Shown here one piece after another: positions 1,756-18,032 of a DNA stretch of 43,892 nt. The notes below the pieces were generated by a model. That model made no database searches. It was not told where the DNA came from and worked only from the letters and a program-made list of their open reading frames with translations. This DNA comes from a virus, in the UHGV virus genome UHGV-0392495. One strand, 5' to 3'. Each line of letters starts with the position of its first letter. Positions within the stretch are counted from its first letter, which is position 1. Made by a program: the position numbers and the translations under genes.

Positions 1756-1778
1756 CATTTAAATTAAAGGAGCAATCA

Positions 1779-2120
1779 ATGAGAAGAAAACTAACTAAGG
1801 CAGAGCGGGAACTTGTTTATGAGAAATGCCAAGGGCATTGCGCTTATTGCGGTCGTGATCTGGAATACAAGGACATGCAGGTAGACCATGTTACTCCTTT
1901 GCGGATTGGAGGGGTAGATGAATTACATAATATGCTGCCAGCGTGTCGGAACTGTAATCACTATAAAGCGACTTTTGACGTTGAGGGATATCGCCAGTAT
2001 CTGGCCGGTATATCTCACCGACTAATGAGAGACAGTATACCCTTTCAGGTCGGGATTAGATTTGGTTTAGTGCAACATGTCAAGGATGATGTCACATTTT
2101 ACTTTGAGACATTAGATTAG
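1779..2120 (+). CDS. HNH endonuclease
   Basis: AAAGGAG RBS then ATG 1779; motif CQGHCAYCG...DHVTPL...CRNCNHYK is the classic HNH Cys4/His-Asn signature (established family knowledge). Confidence 0.8.
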   Translation: MRRKLTKAERELVYEKCQGHCAYCGRDLEYKDMQVDHVTPLRIGGVDELHNMLPACRNCNHYKATFDVEGYRQYLAGISHRLMRDSIPFQVGIRFGLVQHVKDDVTFYFETLD

Positions 2121-2152
2121 CATTTCCGGGATTTCGGAGAAAGGGTTAAATA

Positions 2153-2353
2153 ATGAAAAATGTAAAAGTGTATAAGCTGAACTTTGATAAAACATGGAGT
2201 TTGGAGAAGGAATTTGATGAAAAAGTATCATGCATTGCTGCCACGGATGGCAATTATGTTGTTGTTTTATCGGAGGAAGACTATTTTGGAAAACTTGTAT
2301 ATTTGTATGATATGAATCAGTACAAGATTGAAATACTTCCTCACGAAAACTGA
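2153..2353 (+). CDS. hypothetical protein
   Basis: 66-aa ORF after boundary motif; ATG preceded by AAAGGG. Confidence 0.4.
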   Translation: MKNVKVYKLNFDKTWSLEKEFDEKVSCIAATDGNYVVVLSEEDYFGKLVYLYDMNQYKIEILPHEN

Positions 2354-2517
2354 AATTTTTCCGACTAAAGAAAAATAAATAGAGGAACATATATGCACAG
2401 AATAAAAACTGAGCGATGGTCACCCGCCAAGATGATTCCACCGCTCCCGTAAATACGTCTGAGTATATTATACCTTACTCGGACGTGAAAATCAATACGA
2501 ATGAGGAGGATATAATT

Positions 2518-3564
2518 ATGAGTACACAGACAATAAAAGCTGAAATCATCAACAATGTACTGGTAGCAATGTCCTTATATATCATGGAGCAGCAGACTCT
2601 TACCATTCTGCAAAATGTAATGCAGCAGGAATTGGTTAGGGTGAACATGGAAGAAATAACTACACTTCCAGTAGAAAGAAAAAATGATATAAGTCAACGG
2701 AATCAGTACATAATACAGTTATTCCTGATTAAAAAGCGTGATTTAGCAAGAGGAACCAAAGAAAACTATCTTAATTCCATACGAAGATTGCTGACAGAGA
2801 TAAGCACAAAATCACTGGACCAGATGGACACCACTGATATTGATTGGTATTTATCGCGATATGAAATCAGAAATGTGTCCAGTGGAGGAAAGAAAAACCA
2901 GCCTAGCACTTATAATAACGAGCGCCGTTTTTTGTCAGCATTCTTTACATGGATGCGCCTTGAGAAGCTTATTACAGATAATCCGGTAGAGTCTATACCG
3001 GCTAAAAAAGTACCCATTAAACCAATTGATTACTACAGCCCGGAAGAATCTGCAAGATTAAGGGATGCGTGCAAAAATATCCGCGAGAGGGCCTTGCTAG
3101 AGGTACTTCGAAGTACTGGAGCCAGGATAGGGGAGATTGCAGAAATAACTCTGGACCAGATAGACATGAGAACCGGCGATATTTGGATACAGGGAGAGAA
3201 AGGCGGAAGATATCGGACTATCTATCTGGATGATGATGCGCGTCATTACTACGGACTGTATTTGGACAGCAGGAAAGATGATTGTCCATATATGTTCCCA
3301 CGCTCCAGAAAACCGTATGGAAAGATGACTACTTGTGGATTTCGGGCGATATTGAAAACCATAAGGAAAAGAGCTGGACTCACATGTCGCGTATATCCGC
3401 ATAAGTCACGAAAGACGCTGGGGATGAATCTGAAAAATCGAGGGGTTGATATTGGAACCATACAGGAAATTATGGGACATGCAGACCCAGGAGTTACGGC
3501 ACGTTATTATGCACAGTCTAACCCGCGCACTCTTCGTTCAGTAAGAGAAAGAGTTAATGTGTAG
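2518..3564 (+). CDS. tyrosine site-specific recombinase (XerD/phage integrase family), second recombinase of the element
   Basis: ATG 2518 after GAGGAGG; C-terminal catalytic-domain hallmarks visible (LLEVLRSTGARIGEI..., HKSRKTLGMNL..., GHADPGVTARYY = R...HxxR...Y pattern); not adjacent to attP. Confidence 0.85.
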   Translation: MSTQTIKAEIINNVLVAMSLYIMEQQTLTILQNVMQQELVRVNMEEITTLPVERKNDISQRNQYIIQLFLIKKRDLARGTKENYLNSIRRLLTEISTKSLDQMDTTDIDWYLSRYEIRNVSSGGKKNQPSTYNNERRFLSAFFTWMRLEKLITDNPVESIPAKKVPIKPIDYYSPEESARLRDACKNIRERALLEVLRSTGARIGEIAEITLDQIDMRTGDIWIQGEKGGRYRTIYLDDDARHYYGLYLDSRKDDCPYMFPRSRKPYGKMTTCGFRAILKTIRKRAGLTCRVYPHKSRKTLGMNLKNRGVDIGTIQEIMGHADPGVTARYYAQSNPRTLRSVRERVNV

Positions 3565-6194: not shown

Positions 6195-7805
6195 GTGGAG
6201 CTTACACCAAAGCAGAAAGCGTTTGCAGATTATTACATAGAGTGCGGGAAAGTAACTGAAGCTGCTGTCAAAGCTGGATATAGCAAAAAGACAGCAGCAA
6301 AAATAGGCAGTGAGAACTTGAAGAAACCAGACGTTTCTGCTTATATAGCTCAACGCCAATCACAAATTGACTCCGAACGCATATGCTCCATTAAAGAAAT
6401 ACAAGAGTTTCGTAGTAGGATTGTAAGAGGAGAAGAAAAGGACCAGTTTGACCTTGATGTAGCAACGATAGATAAGCTTAAGGCTGCAAGTGACCTGGAA
6501 AAAGCATTACGAATAAAAGAGGCCGAGGATGAACGTAAAAAACAGGAAGAAGCAGCAAGAAATGCAAAAAATTATCATCTTGATTTACATAATATACCGG
6601 ATAACTTTCATCCTACTGTTAGAAAAATAAGAAACCAAGAATACACAGAATTTACTTTTAAGGGTGGACGTGGAGGAGCCAAATCATCAGTAATCGCAAT
6701 GATGATTATTGAGATTTTAAAGAATAATCACGATGTTCACGCGCTTGTATGCCGTAAGGTATATGGAACTATAAAGGATAGTGTATATGCAAAAATAAAG
6801 TGGGCTATACAGAAGCAAGGGCTTGATGCAGAATTTAATTCTACAGTTAGCCCGTATGAAATTACACTTAAGTCCACAAAACAAAAAATATATTTTCGTG
6901 GTGCAGACGACCCTACAAAGATAAAATCAATTACGCCAGAATTTGGATATATTGGCTGTCTGTGGCTAGAAGAATTAGACCAATTTGACGGACCGGAAGA
7001 AATGAGAAGTATTCGACAGTCTGCCTTAAGAGGTGGAAAACTTGGATTTATGTTTGAATCATTTAATCCTCCAATTAGTAAATCAAATTGGGCTAATAAC
7101 TATGCAGCGGAATCAAAGGAAAACAGGATTGTACATCACAGTACATATTTAAGTGTGCCGAAGGACTGGCTTGAAAAGCCGTTTATAGAAGAAGCAGAGC
7201 ATCTTAAAGAAGCAAAGCCAGAAGCATATAAACATGAATATCTTGGGATACCTATTGGACTTGGAACAGAGATATTTAAGTATTTAGAAATAAGAACCAT
7301 AACAGACGAAGAAATTAAAAGGCAAGAAAAGATATACCAAGGACAAGACTGGGGATGGGAGCCAGACCCAAAAGCCTTTATACGATGTTCATATAGTCAT
7401 GCAACAGAAAAAATTATGCTCATTGACGAAATGGGAGGTCCGCTTATTCGTGTGTCAGAAATGGCGCAAAAGATTTTAGATGCAGGATATGATGATTATA
7501 CCATTTACTGTGGAGCTGATGAAAAAGAACATACAAATGATTTTAGGGATGCAGGATTACCCGCCAGAATGGCTATCGTAGGACCTGGAAGTGTAAGGCG
7601 CACATTTGAATGGCTACAATGCAGAACTATTGTTATAGACCCTGCAAGAACGCCAAAAGCGTATAAAGAATTTGTGGAATATGAACATGATGTGGATAAA
7701 AACGGAGAAGCAATTGACAATTACCCAGACCACAATAATCACTGGATTGACGCTCTCCGTTATGCTACAAGCCCGTTATCAATGCGAAGGGGGAACAGTG
7801 CATGA
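6195..7805 (+). CDS. terminase, fused small-subunit HTH domain + large-subunit ATPase/nuclease
   Basis: GTG start; N-terminus KQKAFADYYIECGKVTEAAVKAGYSKKTAAKIG resembles terminase small-subunit HTH family; then Walker A FKGGRGGAKSS and PBSX/XtmB-like large terminase body. Confidence 0.85.
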   Translation: MELTPKQKAFADYYIECGKVTEAAVKAGYSKKTAAKIGSENLKKPDVSAYIAQRQSQIDSERICSIKEIQEFRSRIVRGEEKDQFDLDVATIDKLKAASDLEKALRIKEAEDERKKQEEAARNAKNYHLDLHNIPDNFHPTVRKIRNQEYTEFTFKGGRGGAKSSVIAMMIIEILKNNHDVHALVCRKVYGTIKDSVYAKIKWAIQKQGLDAEFNSTVSPYEITLKSTKQKIYFRGADDPTKIKSITPEFGYIGCLWLEELDQFDGPEEMRSIRQSALRGGKLGFMFESFNPPISKSNWANNYAAESKENRIVHHSTYLSVPKDWLEKPFIEEAEHLKEAKPEAYKHEYLGIPIGLGTEIFKYLEIRTITDEEIKRQEKIYQGQDWGWEPDPKAFIRCSYSHATEKIMLIDEMGGPLIRVSEMAQKILDAGYDDYTIYCGADEKEHTNDFRDAGLPARMAIVGPGSVRRTFEWLQCRTIVIDPARTPKAYKEFVEYEHDVDKNGEAIDNYPDHNNHWIDALRYATSPLSMRRGNSA

Positions 7806-8014: not shown

Positions 8015-9448
8015 ATGGGACTAATAACATGGGCTAAAAAGGTGATAGGAATGATATTCAAGCGACAGGCAGAAGAAGATTTTAATGTTGAGTCAGTAGT
8101 ATCCCCGGAGATGGAAAGCAAGATTGCAGAGTGCGCCAATATCTACCGTGGTACGCCCTATTGGGTGAACGCTGACGATAACGTTAAGACAATCAATTTT
8201 GCAAAGGCCATCTGCTCCGAGACGGCCCGGCTTGCTACCCTGGCGATTGGGATACAGATTGATGGGAGCGCGCGGGCGGCGTGGCTCCAGGAGCAGATTG
8301 ACAAGATATATTTCCAGATTAGGCATTGGGTAGAATATGGTATGGCCTACGGCACAATCATCCTTAAACCAAACGGTAAGGGGCTGGACATATTTACACC
8401 GCAAGATTTTATTGTTACTGACTGTGACAATGAAGGTATCTATGGGATTGTATTCAAAGATAGTTACAGCGAGAACGATAAATACTATACCCGGTTTGAG
8501 TATCATCGGTTTGTCGAGGTCAAGGACGGAGAGAACACCTATTACCCATATTACATATCCAATAGAGCTTATGTGTCTCACTCTGCAAAAAGTGTGGGGG
8601 ACCCGATAGCATTAAACAGGACTAAATGGTCTGACTTACTTCCAGAGACACCACCTATACTTAAGTCCAATAATGAGAAAATAGATGGTCCCATGTTTGG
8701 AATACTACGCACTCCACAGGCTAACAATTTGGATATTTCATCCCCTTTAGGATTGCCAATGTTTGCCGAGGCCATAGAAGAATTAAAGGACCTTGATGTG
8801 GCATACAGCCGGAATGTGGGTGAAATATTTGACAGTGAGAAAATCATATTGGCAGATGACCAGCTAATGTTTGGAAGCGGTACAAACATTAAAGGCCGTT
8901 ATGCTGGTATGAAGAATGAAAAACTTCCTCATTATGTGAGAAATGTGTTTGGGAATGGACAGGAATCATTTTATCAGGAGATTGTCCCATCATTAAACAC
9001 TGATACCAGAATTACAGGTATTAATAATCTTCTTTCATTTATTGGATTTAAATGTGGATATTCTAATGGATATTTTGTGCTTGATGAAAAAACAGGTATG
9101 GTCACAGCAACACAGGTAGAAGCTGACGACCGCCGAACTATCCAGTTAATCAAGGATGTGCGCGACAAACTGGAAAGCTGTCTTGACGGGGCAATATATG
9201 CGCTTAATGTATATGCGGACCTGTACGGACTGGCACCAGTCGGAAACTACGAAATCACATATGATTTTGGGGACATTACATACAACCGTGAGGAGGACCG
9301 GGCAAGATGGTGGCAATATGTTGTGCAGGGAAAGGTACCGGCATGGATGTATTTTCGGAAGTTTGAAGGATTATCCGAAGAAGATGCAAAGGCTATGGTA
9401 CAGGAAGCACAGCCGAAGAATGGACCGAGGATGTTTGAGGAGGAATAA
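8015..9448 (+). CDS. portal protein (SPP1 gp6-like)
   Basis: 477 aa, immediately after terminase; size/position/composition typical of siphovirus portal. Confidence 0.75.
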   Translation: MGLITWAKKVIGMIFKRQAEEDFNVESVVSPEMESKIAECANIYRGTPYWVNADDNVKTINFAKAICSETARLATLAIGIQIDGSARAAWLQEQIDKIYFQIRHWVEYGMAYGTIILKPNGKGLDIFTPQDFIVTDCDNEGIYGIVFKDSYSENDKYYTRFEYHRFVEVKDGENTYYPYYISNRAYVSHSAKSVGDPIALNRTKWSDLLPETPPILKSNNEKIDGPMFGILRTPQANNLDISSPLGLPMFAEAIEELKDLDVAYSRNVGEIFDSEKIILADDQLMFGSGTNIKGRYAGMKNEKLPHYVRNVFGNGQESFYQEIVPSLNTDTRITGINNLLSFIGFKCGYSNGYFVLDEKTGMVTATQVEADDRRTIQLIKDVRDKLESCLDGAIYALNVYADLYGLAPVGNYEITYDFGDITYNREEDRARWWQYVVQGKVPAWMYFRKFEGLSEEDAKAMVQEAQPKNGPRMFEEE

Positions 9449-12533: not shown

Positions 12534-13238
12534 ATGGAAAGTGGTTACTCTTTAGCGGACATTGCAGCCGCTACAGGAAACGGAAATAACAGAAATGGCG
12601 ATGGTATGTGGGGCGATTGGATTTGGATTATCGTTCTCTTCCTGTTCGCCGGGGGAGGCTGGGGCAATGGCTTCGGCGGCAACGGTGCAAATGGAGCGGG
12701 ACTCCAGGGTCTTGCAACCAGAGCAGATATCAATGAAGGTTTTGCTTTGAACGGTATAGAAAACGGAATTAGAGGTATCCAGCAAGGTATCTGTGACAGC
12801 ACATACGCTCTGAACAACACTATTACCAGCGGATTTAACGGTGTTGACCGTAGCTTATGCCAGATGGGCTATCAGCTCCAGGATTGCTGCTGCCAGACAC
12901 AGCGCGCTATTGATGGCGTAAACTACAATCTGGCTACACAGTCTTGCGACACCAGAAATACCATTCAGACTGCAACTAGGGATATCCTGGACAATAATAA
13001 CAGCAACACCAGGGCTATCCTTGACTTCCTGACTCAGGACAAGATTTCCAGCCTCCAGGCAGAGAATCAGACTCTTAGGTTCCAGGCAAGCCAGACAGCC
13101 CAGAACGGCTTTATTGATGCAGTTGGTAACTCAATCGTTGCCCAGCTTCGTCAGCCGCAGCCTGTACCGGCTTATACAGTACCGGCGCCATATCCATATG
13201 CATCTAATTGTGGGTGCAATGCTGGATGCGGATGCTAA
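12534..13238 (+). CDS. membrane-anchored Gly-rich / Cys-rich protein (YjcZ-like N-terminus, C-terminal CGCNAGCGC)
   Basis: RBS AAAGGAG; Gly/Asn/Trp-rich segment around hydrophobic WIWIIVLFLFAGGGW resembles YjcZ-family sporulation microproteins; middle region has a CCC triplet and about 6 Cys. Confidence 0.5.
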   Translation: MESGYSLADIAAATGNGNNRNGDGMWGDWIWIIVLFLFAGGGWGNGFGGNGANGAGLQGLATRADINEGFALNGIENGIRGIQQGICDSTYALNNTITSGFNGVDRSLCQMGYQLQDCCCQTQRAIDGVNYNLATQSCDTRNTIQTATRDILDNNNSNTRAILDFLTQDKISSLQAENQTLRFQASQTAQNGFIDAVGNSIVAQLRQPQPVPAYTVPAPYPYASNCGCNAGCGC

Positions 13239-13444
13239 CTCGAAACGAACAGTTTTACGATAATCTTGCTTTATATGCAGCAGCATTACAAATGATTGAT
13301 GTGTTTTTGCTTTTGGGAGAAGCTTCTAATAATGATATTATGGAGGCGCTTCAACAGCAAAATAAAGAATACATGGAAAAGATTATCGACCAAAACAACC
13401 GCATATTGCGTATCTTGTCCGAAAAGGACATGTCTACTGAATAG
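13232..13444 (+). CDS. hypothetical protein (start uncertain)
   Basis: in-frame ATG 13232 chosen from track ORF 13208-13444; no clear RBS. Confidence 0.3.
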   Translation: MLTRNEQFYDNLALYAAALQMIDVFLLLGEASNNDIMEALQQQNKEYMEKIIDQNNRILRILSEKDMSTE

Positions 13445-13509
13445 TAGTATTACACACATGGAGGGGTAGGCACAGGCTTGCCCTTCTGTGCATATAAGGA
13501 GGAATTATT

Positions 13510-13908
13510 ATGGCAGATTTTGTAACTGCTGGCACACAGACCGTTGAAGTCAATGCAAGTGTTTTGTTTGCAGCAAACCGGATATATTCTTGCAATTGTC
13601 CAAATATAAGACATGAGCCACTTTCTGGGAGAGTAGTTTTACTTCCTGGCCTGTACCGTGTAGGATTTAACGGAAACTTTTCCGCAGCTGCGGCAGGAGA
13701 TGTAATTTTTGAAATACAGCAGGACGGCGAAGGCATTCCCGGTGCAAGAATCCAGAACACAGTTGCCGCCGGCGCAACAATCAATGGAGCAGCAACTGTA
13801 GAAGTACGAGTGTGCAAGCCATGTTGTGCTACCTTATCGGTAAAAAACGTTGGAGCCACAGCGGCGACAGTATCAGACGCTAACCTTGTTGTTAGCAGAA
13901 TAGGTTAA
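13510..13908 (+). CDS. BclA C-terminal-domain-like (C1q/TNF-like beta-sandwich) protein
   Basis: pattern GLYRVGFNGNFSAAAAGDVIFEIQQDGEGIPGA ... ANLVVSRIG parallels the B. anthracis BclA C-terminal domain (GFYKITVIANTATASVLGGLTIQVNGVPVPGT ... ASIIIEKVA) from memory; RBS AAGGAGG. Confidence 0.5.
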   Translation: MADFVTAGTQTVEVNASVLFAANRIYSCNCPNIRHEPLSGRVVLLPGLYRVGFNGNFSAAAAGDVIFEIQQDGEGIPGARIQNTVAAGATINGAATVEVRVCKPCCATLSVKNVGATAATVSDANLVVSRIG

Positions 13909-13920
13909 GGGGGTAAGGCT

Positions 13921-14460
13921 ATGAGTTATAAGATGATGCAGAATATCCACGAAGAACTGGATAAGATTGCGGAAAAGGGCCTGAATACCAACAACCTCGA
14001 AACCGCATACAAACTGATTGACATGTGGAAAGACATGGAGAATGTAGAGTACTGGAAATGCAAGGAAGAGTACTACAATCAGGTAATGGATGAAATGGAC
14101 GGTGGAGAGTACAGCGAAGCACGCCGCAAGCGTGACAGCATGGGACGTTATAGCCGTGCTGATGGAATGTCTCAGGACTATGATAATGACAGCTCCTATC
14201 GTGGAACACGCGGGAAACATTACGTCAGAGGACACTACAGCCGCGCGACCGGGCCGGCCTATGATGACTACATGAATCAGAAGCAGAGCTACAGAAGCGG
14301 TGGGAAAGATGAGGATTGCAAGCGGCGTATGCTTGCGGCACTTGAACATCACATGGATGAATTAACCGAGGAACTGGGCGAGATGAGCCGTGACGCTGAG
14401 TGCAGAGAGGAAAGGGAGGTCATGAAACGCTATATAGAAAAACTGCGTAACATGATGTAA
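13921..14460 (+). CDS. charged Tyr/Arg/Asp-rich protein (179 aa)
   Basis: RBS AAGGGGG; no family recognised. Confidence 0.45.
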   Translation: MSYKMMQNIHEELDKIAEKGLNTNNLETAYKLIDMWKDMENVEYWKCKEEYYNQVMDEMDGGEYSEARRKRDSMGRYSRADGMSQDYDNDSSYRGTRGKHYVRGHYSRATGPAYDDYMNQKQSYRSGGKDEDCKRRMLAALEHHMDELTEELGEMSRDAECREEREVMKRYIEKLRNMM

Positions 14461-14463
14461 TCT

Positions 14464-14493
14464 AAAAGGCAGGATTAACTTCCTGCCTTTTTA
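14464..14493. terminator. bidirectional rho-independent terminator
   Basis: AAAA-GGCAGGA-TTAACT-TCCTGCC-TTTTT separating convergent + cluster and minus-strand HNH gene. Confidence 0.7.
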
Positions 14494-14524
14494 TGATGAA
14501 TTTGTACCGGACGCGTCAAAGCGT

Positions 14525-15391
14525 CTAGAATATCCCATCCGCTGTATATGCGGCTATGTACCCTTGTATAAGGAACTTCCTATTTGTATTATTTCCTTGT
14601 TGAACATCTGTAGCCCATCTACAATTTGATGGCTCATATCCCTTGGCATTATCAATTCTGTCAATAGATAAATTTTCTTCATACCCATTATTTAAAGCCC
14701 ATTTTTTAAATTTCTTATACTCTTTCCATTCTTGGCAAACAGCTATTCCTTTTTCTCCATACAAATAGTACGACTTGTGTTTTGGGCTATAGCAACGTAA
14801 CATCATATCATGCCATATACGATAAATCCGAGTATTTGTATCTCCGTGAGTAGTATTTCTTTCTATGGCAACCTCCCTGTTATAACAGCCACATGATTTT
14901 GTATGCCCACTAATTAAGTTTTGTTGATGAACAATTACCGAGTTTCCACAGTTGCATTTACATTCCCATAAGGTTTGTTTTCCGTTGCTTTTTCCGGCAT
15001 ACCGTATGGCTACTAAACGCCCAAAACGCTTCCCTGAAATATCATCCACTTTGGGAGTTCTGCAATTTTTACAGCATTTCTCGTAAGGAGATTTTAATGC
15101 GAACGCACTTGTTATAAAGCGCGTTCCGCAGTCGCATACACATTCGTATTGAACGTATGATTTTTTCATAGGAAGTTTTTTTAATATAGTCAATTTCCCT
15201 ATTTTTCTTCCTGATAGATTTTCCTTGTTTATGCAGCCGCATGATTTTGTTTTTCCGTCACGCAGATTCCCAGAATAGATTTTTCGCTCTGTTCCACATT
15301 GGCAGCGACATAAATAATACTGATTACCAAGGTATTCTAGGACTGTCCACATTCCAAACTTTTGACCTGTTAAATCAATTCTTTTTGTCAT
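14525..15391 (-). CDS. HNH/AP2-type homing-endonuclease-like protein with three zinc-binding repeats
   Basis: ATG at 15391 (MTKRIDLTGQ) preceded by AAAGGGG; three repeats of GxxFGxL..........C.CG........L.SG.T.SCGC, then YRIWHDMMLRC...IDRIDN..GYEPSNCRWAT typical of phage HNH nuclease-like family. Confidence 0.65.
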   Translation of the reverse strand: MTKRIDLTGQKFGMWTVLEYLGNQYYLCRCQCGTERKIYSGNLRDGKTKSCGCINKENLSGRKIGKLTILKKLPMKKSYVQYECVCDCGTRFITSAFALKSPYEKCCKNCRTPKVDDISGKRFGRLVAIRYAGKSNGKQTLWECKCNCGNSVIVHQQNLISGHTKSCGCYNREVAIERNTTHGDTNTRIYRIWHDMMLRCYSPKHKSYYLYGEKGIAVCQEWKEYKKFKKWALNNGYEENLSIDRIDNAKGYEPSNCRWATDVQQGNNTNRKFLIQGYIAAYTADGIF

Positions 15392-15489
15392 TAAGTAACC
15401 CCTTTCTATATTCGATATTATACCATAAGAACGAGAAATAATCAATTAGTATATAGTTAAAAAGTGTGGATAAGAAAAGTAAAATAATC

Positions 15490-15498
15490 TGGTATAAT
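15490..15498 (+). promoter_or_regulatory. extended -10 promoter element TGGTATAAT
   Basis: TGnTATAAT about 95 nt upstream of KTR gene; a divergent TGGTATAAT (reverse strand, around 15410-15418) precedes the HNH gene. Confidence 0.4.
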
Positions 15499-15591
15499 GA
15501 GAGGGGATATCTAACCTTACAAAATGTGGGGACGATTATTTCTTATGAATACAGTAAAATGGGAGTAGGAATAAGCAGAAAGGGTGAAAAC

Positions 15592-15762
15592 ATGGTAAAA
15601 GACGGTTGGGTATACTGCCCCATATGTAGTAATAAAACAAGGACAAAAATAAGGAAAGATACTGAAGCCAAGAATTTACCTGTATTTTGCCCAAAGTGCA
15701 GGAATATAACCGTAATGGATATATATGGAAGTGAAATAAAAAGAATGCAAAGCATTAATTAG
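15592..15762 (+). CDS. cysteine-rich KTR-domain zinc-ribbon microprotein (56 aa)
   Basis: RBS GAAAGGGTGAAAAC then ATG 15592; WVYCPICSNKTRTKIRKDTEAKNLPVFCPKCRN matches the Cys_rich_KTR pattern (CP.C.NKTR...CPKC). Confidence 0.55.
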   Translation: MVKDGWVYCPICSNKTRTKIRKDTEAKNLPVFCPKCRNITVMDIYGSEIKRMQSIN

Positions 15763-16109
15763 AGCCAGTCGCCAGTCGCAGAGCCATACAGATTACAGAA
15801 CGTAATTTGCATGGCTTTTTCTTTACATAGAACCTCCTCCAATTGCACATGTCCTTAATAGAAACAGGTTCTAATGCATAGCATAAACAACCTGGAGGTT
15901 GAAAAGCGGATGCAATTTCCGGCATGTGCATTCCTTCTAAAGGCTATCCTCCTCCCGTAATGGAGATAGAAAAAACTTGTCAGTTATGACCTGGACGAAA
16001 CTGAAAAATGATACGGCATTGTTTTGGTGGGATATCGGCGGGCTGACAGCATTTCAGAGTACATATGCGGCGCAAAAAGGCGTGACGAGGAGTTTTCAAG
16101 AAATGAAAT

Positions 16110-16182
16110 CGGGAAATAGCTCAGTTGGTAGAGCAGCAGCCTTATAAGCTGTGTGTCAGAGGTTCGATTCCTCTTTTCCCGA
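16110..16182 (+). tRNA. tRNA, anticodon UAU (reads AUA; Ile2-type), 73 nt, no encoded CCA
   Basis: hand-folded: acceptor CGGGAAA/TTTCCCG (7 bp), D-arm GCTC-AGTTGGTA-GAGC, anticodon arm GCAGC-CTTATAA-GCTGT, T-arm AGAGG-TTCGATT-CCTCT, discriminator A. Confidence 0.7.
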
Positions 16183-16331
16183 TGTAGTCGGGTCGCTCCC
16201 GGATGATGTGAGAGCACGCAGAATGCCTCACAGAGAATGACAATGCCTGCTGAAAACTACTGCGATAGTTCCAGGGACTAGGACACGGGACTGAAATTCG
16301 CAGTGTGACAATCTAAGCAGGAACTGCATCA

Positions 16332-16420
16332 TGAGGATTCGCCAAGCGGTTAAGGCACCGGGTTTTGACCTCGGCAAAGAAGGAACACTCTTTACGCTGG
16401 TTCAAATCCAGCATCCTCAG
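16332..16420 (+). tRNA. type-II (long variable arm) tRNA, Ser-like body with G73, anticodon loop reads UUG
   Basis: hand-folded: acceptor TGAGGAT/ATCCTCA, D-arm GCC-AAGCGGTTAA-GGC (as in tRNA-Ser), anticodon arm CCGGG-TTTTGAC-CTCGG, 21-nt variable arm with 5-bp stem AAAGA/TCTTT, T-arm GCTGG-TTCAAAT-CCAGC, discriminator G. Confidence 0.6.
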
Positions 16421-16512
16421 TTTTGGACACGCCAAGTCCTACAAAATGGCAAACCGTTGGTGGACGGTTACACACCTACAAATAACCTAATAACGGAAAA
16501 GGAGAATCATCA

Positions 16513-17136
16513 ATGAAAACCGAAGAATTAAAAGCACAGGGATTGACAGAGGAACAGATATCTTTTGTCATGGCTGAAAATGGGAAAGACCTCAAAAAGT
16601 TGCAGAAAGAAAACGACAATCTGAGCGCGGACCGGGATACCTGGAAAGAAAAAGCAGAAGCAGCAGAAACAACGCTTAAAGGCTTTGAAGGGGTTGACCT
16701 GGAGACGATGCAGAGGGAAATATCTGACTGGAAACAGAAAGCTACAGAAGCCGAGAAAAAAGCCCAGGAGCAGCTTTACGAGCGTGACTTTTCGGACGCT
16801 CTGAAAACGGAATTTGAGGGTATTAAGTTTTCCAGCGAAGCGGCTAAACGTGCAATTATGGCAGAAGTAAAAGAGGCCGGTTTAAAGCTGAAAGATGGTA
16901 AAATTCTGGGGCTGAATGACCTTTTGTCTCAAATGAAAGAAAAAGATGCTTCGGCTTTTGTTGATGATGCACAGCAGCAGGTACAGCAGAACATGGCGAG
17001 GTTTACTGCACCAGTAGGTAAGCAGAATACGACAGGAACTATGACACGAAAGGATATTGAAGCAATTAAAGACCCGTCTGAGCGCCAGTCTGCAATTGCC
17101 AATAACCTTCATTTATTTGGTAAAGGAGAACAGTAA
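16513..17136 (+). CDS. scaffolding protein
   Basis: 207-aa charged, helical/coiled-coil protein immediately upstream of the major capsid gene. Confidence 0.65.
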   Translation: MKTEELKAQGLTEEQISFVMAENGKDLKKLQKENDNLSADRDTWKEKAEAAETTLKGFEGVDLETMQREISDWKQKATEAEKKAQEQLYERDFSDALKTEFEGIKFSSEAAKRAIMAEVKEAGLKLKDGKILGLNDLLSQMKEKDASAFVDDAQQQVQQNMARFTAPVGKQNTTGTMTRKDIEAIKDPSERQSAIANNLHLFGKGEQ

Positions 17137-18032
17137 TGGCAGCAAAAGCCAATATAATCACAAGCGCGGACATACAGGTTACAGCGCGTGAAATTGATTT
17201 TGTGACTCGCTTTGAGAGGAACTGGCAGCATCTTCGGGACATTCTGGGGATTATGCGTCCTATTAAGAAAACACCGGGAGCAGTGCTGAAAAGCAAATAT
17301 GCAGAAGGAACTTTACAGAGCGGGGCTGTGGGCGAAGGAGAGGAAATCCCTTACAGCAAATTCACAGTAAAGGAAAAGACGTATGCGGAAATGACCATTG
17401 AGAAGTATGCAAAGGCCGTTTCCATTGAAGCAATTAAGGACCACGGATATGAAAATGCCGTCCAGATGACAGACGACGAATTTTTGTTCCAGCTTCAATC
17501 GGATGTAACAGAACGATTCTATACATATCTGAATACCGGTACACTTATCGGAACAGAAACCACTTTCCAGATGGCCCTTGCTATGGCAAAAGGAAAGGTA
17601 GAAAACAAATTCAAACAGATGCACCGGAATGTTACAGGTGTGGTTGGGTTTGCGAATATTCTGGATGTATACCAGTACTTGGGGGCTGCTGAAATCACGG
17701 TGCAGAATCAGTTTGGTTTCCAGTATCTCAAAGATTTCATGGGATTCAATACAATCTTTCTGCTGTCCGACTCGGAAATTGCAAGAGGAAAAGTAATAGC
17801 TACACCAGTGGAAAACATTGTAATGTACTATGTTGACCCAAATGAAAGCGATTTTGCACGGGCTGGACTGGTATATACCACAGGGGCCGGAGAAACAAAC
17901 CTTATTGGATTCCATACACAGGGTAATTACAACACCGCTGTTTCCGAGGCATTTGCAATTATGGGATTAACTCTGTTTGCGGAATACCTTGACGGTATTG
18001 CAGTTATCACCATCAGCGCGGGGGGAGCGTAG
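17136..18032 (+). CDS. major capsid protein
   Basis: 298 aa, ATG overlaps scaffold stop, RBS AAAGGAG; position and size typical. Confidence 0.65.
   Translation: MAAKANIITSADIQVTAREIDFVTRFERNWQHLRDILGIMRPIKKTPGAVLKSKYAEGTLQSGAVGEGEEIPYSKFTVKEKTYAEMTIEKYAKAVSIEAIKDHGYENAVQMTDDEFLFQLQSDVTERFYTYLNTGTLIGTETTFQMALAMAKGKVENKFKQMHRNVTGVVGFANILDVYQYLGAAEITVQNQFGFQYLKDFMGFNTIFLLSDSEIARGKVIATPVENIVMYYVDPNESDFARAGLVYTTGAGETNLIGFHTQGNYNTAVSEAFAIMGLTLFAEYLDGIAVITISAGGA

Follow-up and report, generated by a model that had tools for sequence, protein, structure and literature searches.

An apparent glutamine tRNA with a long variable arm in a gut phage, and the tRNA-Gln(UUG) family to which its sequence assigns it

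The 43,892-nucleotide (nt) viral genome UHGV-0392495, the whole of which is here called the window and supplies all coordinates given without a locus name (L-numbers denote retrieved loci), contains on its plus strand, at 16332..16420, an 89-nt tRNA gene without encoded CCA that joins the anticodon UUG to a long variable arm. Judged by its sequence, this gene is glutamine-type in body and acceptor end and belongs to a large gut-phage family of tRNA-Gln(UUG) genes with hairpins in the variable region, a family that is apparently both widespread and undescribed. The tRNA probably decodes CAA as glutamine. In bacteria, a long variable arm is restricted to the tRNAs for leucine, serine, tyrosine and selenocysteine, and it is the main recognition handle of seryl-tRNA synthetase (SerRS); a glutamine tRNA that bears such an arm is thus an architecture that will surprise tRNA specialists.

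ARAGORN calls tRNA-Gln(ttg) at exactly these positions, as one of two tRNAs in the window, the other being a tRNA-Ile(tat) on the same strand. The Rfam tRNA model (RF00005) matches 16332-16420 over positions 1-71 of its 71 with 52.3 bits (gathering score 29, E 1.6e-8), assigning an 18-nt excess to the variable region and UUUUGAC to the anticodon loop. The acceptor stem pairs UGAGGAU (16332..16338) with AUCCUCA (16413..16419), starting from U1-A72, and ends in the discriminator G73 (16420), which is also the exact right edge of the cassette described below. The D-arm, GCC-AAGCGGUUAA-GGC (16341..16356), is of the tRNA-Gln type with one additional U in the loop. In the anticodon arm, CCGGG-UUUUGAC-CUCGG (16358..16374), the stem contains one G-U pair and the loop U33 and A37, the anticodon itself occupying 16365..16367 (positions 34-36); the T-arm is GCUGG-UUCAAAU-CCAGC (16396..16412), so that the acceptor and T stems have the canonical 7/5 configuration. 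Between the anticodon and T arms lies the 21-nt variable region CAAAGAAGGAACACUCUUUAC (16375..16395), which runs from C44 A45 through a 5-base-pair (bp), A/U-rich hairpin (AAAGA, loop AGGAACAC, UCUUU) to an A and C48. This cloverleaf has an energy of -27.2 kcal/mol, with -2.5 coming from the variable hairpin; left unconstrained, the minimum-free-energy fold (-31.2) mispairs the D region, as is common when unmodified tRNA sequences are folded by free energy.

An earlier description of the locus from the sequence alone (the first-pass annotation) had listed a 7-bp acceptor stem, a 21-nt variable arm with a 5-bp stem, a discriminator G and the anticodon loop TTTTGAC; all of these are present, and UUG stands at positions 34-36 by sequence, by ARAGORN and by Rfam alike, as it does throughout the family. 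A conventional serine anticodon at these positions, which it had named as contrary evidence if found by a covariance-model fold, does not appear; RF00005 keeps the UUUUGAC loop, and the ARAGORN isotype is Gln(ttg). The anticodon UUG reads CAA, while a reading of CAG would depend on the modification of U34.

The relationship of the body to tRNA-Gln is seen wherever the gene is compared. With the 89-nt gene as BLAST query, 5411 of 5426 complete Escherichia coli genomes give a match, always to genes annotated as tRNA-Gln (positions 8-45, up to 89.5% identity), and the annotated matches among 50,697 phage records are likewise all tRNA-Gln; no tRNA-Ser gene is matched in either set. Direct alignment gives the window tRNA an identity of 78% with E. 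coli tRNA-Gln(UUG) (72 aligned positions; 71-78% for both tRNA-Gln genes of E. coli), as against 48% with one E. coli tRNA-Ser and 37-44% with phage tRNA-Ser genes. Its D-arm, which had been described as tRNA-Ser-like, is the standard D-arm of tRNA-Gln, coinciding with that of E. coli apart from the one extra U; the corresponding part of the D-loop is GGUUAA or GGCUAA in window-type members of the family and GGUAA in other lineages. The bacterial glutamine identity set comprises G73, U1-A72, G2-C71, G3-C70, G10, U34, U35, G36, A37 and U38, with U1-A72 being read also by the tRNA-Gln-specific GluRS2 and by amidotransferases (PMC9976931). Eight of these ten elements are found in the window tRNA, namely G73, U1-A72, G2-C71, G10, U34, U35, G36 and A37. 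Of the features expected in tRNA-Ser, the G1-C72 pair, which most co-resident tRNA-Ser genes show as G-C, is replaced by U1-A72, and the anticodon is UUG rather than NGA or GCU. The serine-type body proposed in the first-pass annotation is not supported, in view of U1-A72, of the identities of 78% to tRNA-Gln versus 48% to tRNA-Ser, and of annotated BLAST matches that are all to tRNA-Gln; the alternative it had offered, a glutamine tRNA with a class-II-type body, is supported and holds for the family as a whole.

Several features weigh against an assignment to glutamine. Two elements of the E. coli identity set are replaced, G3-C70 by A3-U70 and U38 by C38; the class-I variable loop of 4-5 nt gives way to a 21-nt region with a hairpin; and the extra D-loop U of the window type resembles a D-loop antideterminant reported for the amidotransferase GatCAB (PMC9976931). 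The geometry of the arm (one unpaired nucleotide on the 5' side, 5 bp, two unpaired nucleotides on the 3' side) falls inside the range of 63 co-resident tRNA-Ser genes, and together with G73, G2-C71, C11-G24 and A3-U70 this Ser-like geometry would favour some serylation. Finally, the genes for scaffold and capsid, both highly expressed and located just downstream, are nearly free of the codon in question (1 CAA versus 15 CAG and 1 CAA versus 12 CAG, respectively), so that any added decoding capacity would benefit the genes for tail, terminase and accessory functions instead of the most abundant proteins.

From the arm and G73, it had been proposed that SerRS, which would read these two features and ignore the anticodon, would charge the tRNA with serine, turning CAA partly or wholly into a serine codon. 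G2-C71 and C11-G24 as well as the arm geometry agree with such a missense tRNA, and arm-bearing tRNAs with non-cognate anticodons have precedents in the nev-tRNAs and allo-tRNAs considered at the end. A serine-accepting tRNA is nevertheless unlikely here. Beyond the Gln-like body and the U1-A72 pair of the window gene, G1-C72 is never found in the family; the strict conservation of UUG over about 150 loci is unexpected if the anticodon is irrelevant to identity; the arms are heterogeneous in length and geometry, only about 7 of 58 family members having a Ser-like one, and they come and go on identical cores; and the phage places CAA at invariant glutamine positions of its own terminase, a codon that carriers of the cassette do not avoid. 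That a class-II body is compatible with glutaminyl-tRNA synthetase (GlnRS) follows from an amber tRNA-Ser of E. coli, which changes at the pairs 1-72 and 3-70 switched to glutamine identity (PMC9976931).

What CAA means to the phage can be gauged from the terminase. Aligned to 119 homologues (61-83% identity), its 13 CAA codons fall into columns with a mean glutamine fraction of 0.75 and a serine fraction of 0.00, six of them being invariant glutamine, while its 30 serine codons align with serine at a mean fraction of 0.55; if CAA were efficiently read as serine, essential proteins of the phage itself would suffer. Together with the Gln-type body and U1-A72, this speaks against the CAA-to-serine recoding that had been predicted. 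The open reading frames (ORFs) of the window contain 201 CAA and 354 CAG codons, and 374 of their 951 isoleucine codons (39%) are ATA; both tRNAs of the cassette thus serve A-ending codons that the phage uses frequently. Over 6.6-kb loci, carriers of the cassette show no meaningful difference in codon usage from close relatives that lack it (CAA 0.21 versus 0.18, ATA 0.30 versus 0.28). A role as a suppressor tRNA was rejected, UUG reading a sense codon and the stop codons of the window ORFs (36 TAA, 19 TGA, 18 TAG) giving no sign of reassignment.

The family was traced first through the neighboring gene and then by pattern. Relatives of the adjacent scaffold protein occur at 80 phage loci, seven of which contain the same 89-nt tRNA (the search for it in related phages, suggested in the first-pass annotation, is answered in this way) and one of which (L036) contains a diverged version; an 84-nt version is found on the GenBank fragment MT838775. 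Between the window, L036 and MT838775 lineages, the differences in the acceptor and T stems are compensatory. A pattern with a Gln-type D-arm, any anticodon, a long gap and a T-loop, leaving the acceptor stem unconstrained, retrieves 64 viral contigs, with UUG in 64/64; 12 contigs of genome bins, with UUG in 11/12 and nearly all from gut Clostridia (Dorea, Ruminococcus, Lachnospiraceae, Oscillospiraceae); and 75 metagenome contigs, with UUG in 73/75 and, in L326, a tRNA identical to that of the window. The two metagenome matches with other triplets were rejected as artefacts of the pattern, one being of the L147/L282 type described below and the other a Gly-like gene with a duplication. In the viral contigs, this open-anticodon pattern finds no other anticodon (CUG, CUA or UUA, for example) on the same long-arm body. 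These loci contain 54 distinct tRNA-Gln(UUG) genes with a long arm that ARAGORN parses cleanly. With a class-I-sized gap, the same pattern matches at least 120 viral stretches, and thus a substantial minority of the phage tRNA-Gln(UUG) genes of this type are long-armed. An exact search of the viral contigs with the 31-nt segment from D-arm to anticodon of the window gene returns nothing, because this gene has a private C-to-U change in the anticodon stem.

In the tRNA arrays, the long-arm gene is the sole tRNA-Gln(UUG) and stands beside ordinary tRNA-Ser genes. Among cultured or deposited phage records there is a single long-arm match, to an unannotated fragment, and the full-text literature searched, which lies mostly outside subscription journals, yields no description of a long-arm tRNA-Gln, an absence of evidence only. 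One window-type gene, in L130 (about 2129-2199, minus strand), lacks 1 nt of the 5' acceptor strand, perhaps as a copy in decay. The tRNA-like gene of L147 (6373-6455, minus strand) and L282 (9129-9211, minus strand) combines a Gln-type D-arm with a 16-nt hairpin at the site of the anticodon loop; it is located on a contig binned as Nanoarchaeota, ARAGORN assigns it no anticodon, and it may contain an intron.

The family is under purifying selection for the cloverleaf. In a set of 24 distinct homologues, in which the D-stem and parts of the loops are fixed by the search pattern and hence uninformative, 99.8% of the cells in the four canonical stems are paired, and changes on both sides are seen in 13 of 20 pairs (6 of 7 in the acceptor stem, 4 of 5 in the anticodon stem and 3 of 5 in the T stem). 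Neither value is reached in any of 500 shuffles, and structures slid by 1-3 columns pair at only 27-47%. At the positions of the acceptor end, which the pattern leaves free, pair 1-72 is UA in 20 members, AU in two, GU in two and GC in none, and G2-C71 is present in all 24; pair 3-70 is GC in 14 of the 24, and 26 of 33 distinct members of the family have G73.

A decaying or neutral pseudo-tRNA with junk in its variable loop would be in keeping with the weakness of the arm stem (-2.5 kcal/mol) and with the acceptor-strand deletion in the L130 relative. Such a gene is disfavoured, and indeed extremely improbable, in view of stems that remain paired through 13 compensatory pairs across lineages differing at many positions, of recovery at more than 150 loci, and of an Rfam score well above threshold.

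The variable regions of the family fall into at least 13 types that are unrelated in sequence, 15-26 nt long with inserts of 10-21 nt, each forming a hairpin of 2-7 bp. Tested against mononucleotide shuffles, the 13 arm types fold with individual p values of 0.003-0.15 and a Fisher's combined p of 4.6e-7. Most arms begin with C44 A45 and end with C48, like the variable loop CAUUC of tRNA-Gln in E. coli. The hairpin thus occupies the site of the class-II arm, the sequences placing it after position 45 and before position 48 of the variable loop.

The arms are exchanged on cores that otherwise hardly change. The genes at L241:3052-3124, with the class-I loop UAUUC, and at L310:633-716, with the 16-nt arm CAGGUAAAUCCUUUAC, are identical in every other respect; L188 and L120 have cores that are 95% identical, one with a normal loop and one with a long arm; L329:625-710 and L343 5008-5099 (minus strand) have identical cores and unrelated arms; and the cores of some family members reach 99% identity with class-I tRNA-Gln genes of phages. 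Since identical cores bear a 5-nt loop, a 16-nt arm or unrelated arms, the variable region is a hotspot of replacement. The loop AGGAACAC is common to the window type and the L001 type, despite their different acceptor and T stems. Because the same cores occur with and without an arm, amino-acid identity is unlikely to hinge on it; were identity set by the arm, each gain or loss would switch the residue inserted at CAA.

The hairpin could also be removed from the transcript in the manner of an intron, leaving an ordinary class-I tRNA-Gln: the flanks C44 A45 and C48 are kept, a 5-nt loop (CAUAC, for example) would reappear once about 16 nt were lost, and some members of the family have genes for the healing and sealing of RNA (kinase, phosphatase, ligase) as neighbours. 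This is very improbable, as the inserts are simple hairpins of 10-21 nt, unrelated in sequence, without a conserved cleavage motif, a bulge-helix-bulge or a group I element, and Rfam sees only the tRNA at the locus; ligase genes occur in two lineages only, the enzymes of L154 having no relative in the window by tblastn; and we know of no bacterial machinery for splicing of this kind.

Hairpins in the variable region are found in other class-I isoacceptors of the same loci as well. In the ARAGORN list, 7 of 41 distinct tRNA-Ile(UAU) genes exceed 82 nt and have such hairpins (one of them, in L237, is dubious), as do 2 of 14 tRNA-Trp(CCA) genes and one tRNA-Lys(UUU); these arm-bearing genes include L121:8400-8487, L122 10191-10281 (minus strand), L174:4900-4987, L307 8310-8399 (minus strand), L120:5026-5117, L343 5298-5381 (minus strand) and L171 1462-1544 (minus strand). 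None is seen among 26 Glu, 30 Pro, 17 Gly(UCC), 57 Met and 20 Asn genes of these loci. The converse case, a missing arm, is presented by 77-nt tRNA-Leu(UAA) genes with a 5-nt variable loop and A73 (L148 5425-5501, minus strand, and L150:7446-7522). L148, a 182-kb contig, also encodes (2448-2526, minus strand) a tRNA with the amber anticodon CUA, a class-I variable loop, and a D-stem and acceptor end resembling tRNA-Gln; it adjoins a tmRNA gene (1758-2108, minus strand) in an array shared with a long-arm tRNA-Gln(UUG), which suggests that this phage reads TAG as a sense codon.

The window is a temperate siphophage of gut Clostridia of roughly 44 kb and 41.5% G+C, with genes for an integrase (2416-3564), a terminase (6195-7805) and a portal protein (8015-9448). 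In BLAST of its positions 13000-17200 against nine close relatives without tRNAs (L002, L003, L006, L013, L015, L016, L020, L024, L025), the alignment ends at 15932 and restarts at 16421, at one junction point in the subject; 15933..16420 on the plus strand is thus a discrete cassette of 488 bp, consisting of a leader, the tRNA-Ile, a 148-nt spacer and the tRNA-Gln. The second phage tRNA that had been noticed nearby is its partner tRNA-Ile(UAU) (16109..16183, plus strand), an ordinary class-I tRNA by ARAGORN and Rfam (73.8 bits). In most bacteria, AUA is read by a lysidine-modified CAU tRNA. Directly to the left of the cassette lies a RAGATH-21 RNA motif (15844..15930, plus strand; RF03097, 88.3 bits), and 5 nt to the right of the tRNA-Gln lies the cis-regulatory RNA motif GP20-b (16425..16489, plus strand; RF03003, 39.4 bits, gathering score 36.2), upstream of the gene for the head scaffolding protein (16513..17136, plus strand; PHROGs phrog_194), which is directly followed by that for the major head protein (17136-18032; PHROGs phrog_544). 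In relatives without the tRNAs, the two RNA motifs abut directly, and other lineages have at the same site only a tRNA-Ile (L041-L081), only a tRNA-Gln (L036), or a tRNA(CAU) and a tRNA-Gln (L001). A scan for promoters and terminators around the cassette gave counts at chance level and no convincing candidate inside it. An ORF of 61 amino acids in the mechanical ORF list (16331-16516), which spans parts of the tRNA and of the GP20-b motif, is almost certainly not a gene. Upstream of the cassette, in a variable accessory region, lies an HNH endonuclease gene (14525-15445, minus strand) with 10 CAA and 1 CAG; its stretch is unaligned in several relatives, which suggests that the gene is absent or replaced there.

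In this setting, both tRNAs would be transcribed along with the late (head-gene) operon, released by RNase P and RNase Z, and then supplied with CCA. Charging of the tRNA-Gln would take the glutamine route of the host, either through GlnRS or through a non-discriminating glutamyl-tRNA synthetase (GluRS) followed by GatCAB, both of which would read U1-A72 and the anticodon, and the pair would add decoding capacity for CAA and AUA, codons heavily used by a phage of this G+C content. The hairpin would leave amino-acid identity unchanged. Class-I synthetases, GlnRS among them, bind their tRNA with the variable region facing the solvent, and insertion of an arm should therefore be tolerated; the arm is probably compatible with the host's glutamine route.

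That arms are gained, lost and replaced so fast while the cores stay identical is in keeping with a tolerated accessory and equally with an adaptation to conflict. Three roles for the arm are consistent with the data. It could be a neutral insertion at a tolerant site; it could let the tRNA evade a nuclease or toxin with which the host attacks tRNA-Gln(UUG), although we know of no nuclease targeting this tRNA in these hosts; or it could act as an anti-determinant against GluRS, the E. coli identity set of which includes the absence of residue 47 (PMC9976931). On a tentative view, for which we see some chance but which we hold to be doubtful, these genes form a new class of phage tRNAs, class-I isoacceptors with a fast-evolving, adaptive arm, chiefly Gln(UUG) and occasionally Ile(UAU), Trp(CCA) and Lys(UUU). 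The arm would then alter which proteins bind, without altering the codon read or, mostly, the amino acid carried, the candidate proteins being a nuclease or toxin aimed at tRNA-Gln(UUG), GluRS versus GlnRS, or SerRS. In a stronger version, the members with Ser-like arms, that of the window included, would be partly serylated and would create a programmed Gln/Ser ambiguity at CAA during infection.

Genes of the tRNA-repair type flank the long-arm tRNA-Gln in L154/L157, where a fusion of kinase, phosphatase and T4 Rnl1-type ligase (Pnkp-Rnl1) and a Thg1-like enzyme are encoded (304-2538 and 3170-4006 in L154, minus strand), and an RNA ligase gene (PF09414; 686-1771, minus strand) lies by the long-arm tRNA-Gln of L122. 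Reverse transcriptases are encoded near the long-arm tRNA-Gln in L110 and L122. A general association of repair genes with the family was rejected, since tblastn with the Pnkp-Rnl1 and Thg1-like proteins of L154 matches L154 and L157 only; the window has no relative of either protein by this search, which did not extend to a wider scan for ligase families. The repair genes of these two lineages, the quick turnover of arms on conserved cores, and the published proposal that phage tRNAs counter tRNA-targeting defences (PMC10264068) would also suit an RNA that is tRNA-like without serving translation, be it a decoy absorbing a nuclease or toxin of the host directed at tRNA-Gln(UUG), or an RNA that regulates or primes, for which the arm would be the specific handle. 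We consider such an RNA quite unlikely: all features needed in translation are kept (7/5 stems, U33, A37, T-loop, Gln-type acceptor end, anticodon), the arrays that include the long-arm gene have no other tRNA-Gln(UUG), and the roles of decoy and decoder are mutually compatible.

For a decoding glutamine tRNA, these considerations bear on the rules of tRNA identity. As the arm is by the textbook restricted to a few other isoacceptors and is the handle of SerRS, glutamine tRNAs that bear it naturally and in many phages are a ready-made experiment on these rules. They pose the questions of whether SerRS can be excluded by U1-A72 and the anticodon alone, and of whether GlnRS, GluRS and GatCAB tolerate the arm. 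The gain, loss and swapping of arms on identical cores, taken together with nearby RNA-repair genes, could therefore mark an unrecognised front between phages and tRNA-targeting defences. In genetic-code engineering, arm-bearing tRNA-Gln are candidates from which orthogonal or tagged tRNAs might be built. Annotators of gut phages should treat tRNA-Gln genes of 84-96 nt as genuine, neither dropping them as pseudogenes nor relabelling them as tRNA-Ser.

Compared with known systems, the window tRNA stands closest in sequence features to the canonical tRNA-Gln(UUG) of bacteria and phages, with which it shares U1-A72, G2-C71, G73, G10, the 7/5 stems, the D-arm (GCC-AAGCGGUAA-GGC in the canonical form) and the anticodon loop YUUUGAY with A37; it differs in the 21-nt hairpin region in place of a 5-nt loop, in A3-U70 and C38, and in one extra U in the D-loop. 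With bacterial tRNA-Ser, it has in common a long arm at the same topological site, G73, G2-C71, C11-G24 and the 3-bp D-stem, whereas U1-A72 stands in place of G1-C72, the anticodon is not one of serine, and the arm geometry varies widely in the family.

Class-II architecture combined with an anticodon outside Leu, Ser and Tyr is also found in the nev-tRNAs of nematodes, variable-arm tRNAs with Gly(CCC) or Ile(UAU) anticodons (PMC3333845, PMC4300185) that are charged with leucine in vitro, against their anticodon (PMC3333845), and the question of charging is the same. The nev-tRNAs, however, are eukaryotic, whereas the window tRNA has a body and an anticodon that agree (Gln), and it is the arm that is out of place. 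The allo-tRNAs and selC*-type tRNAs of bacteria, Clostridia included, and of phages have variable arms and in some cases anticodons for other amino acids, with 8/4 or 9/3 acceptor/T stems, Sec-like D-arms and inferred serine or alanine acceptance (PMC5389517); the window tRNA, with 7/5 stems and a Gln-type D-arm, shows neither the 8/4 nor the 9/3 configuration.

Phage tRNAs have been proposed to escape tRNA-targeting host defences through changes in the anticodon loop (PMC10264068). The likeness lies in host-like copies with structural differences and in the repair genes near some long-arm family members; the window tRNA, in contrast, has a canonical anticodon loop and an added arm. The closest functional analogue is the amber tRNA-Ser engineered to glutamine identity (PMC9976931), which is likewise class-II in shape, with a Gln-type acceptor end, and is accepted by GlnRS; it is an artificial molecule with a serine body and the anticodon CUA, whereas the window tRNA is natural and joins a glutamine body to a sense anticodon.

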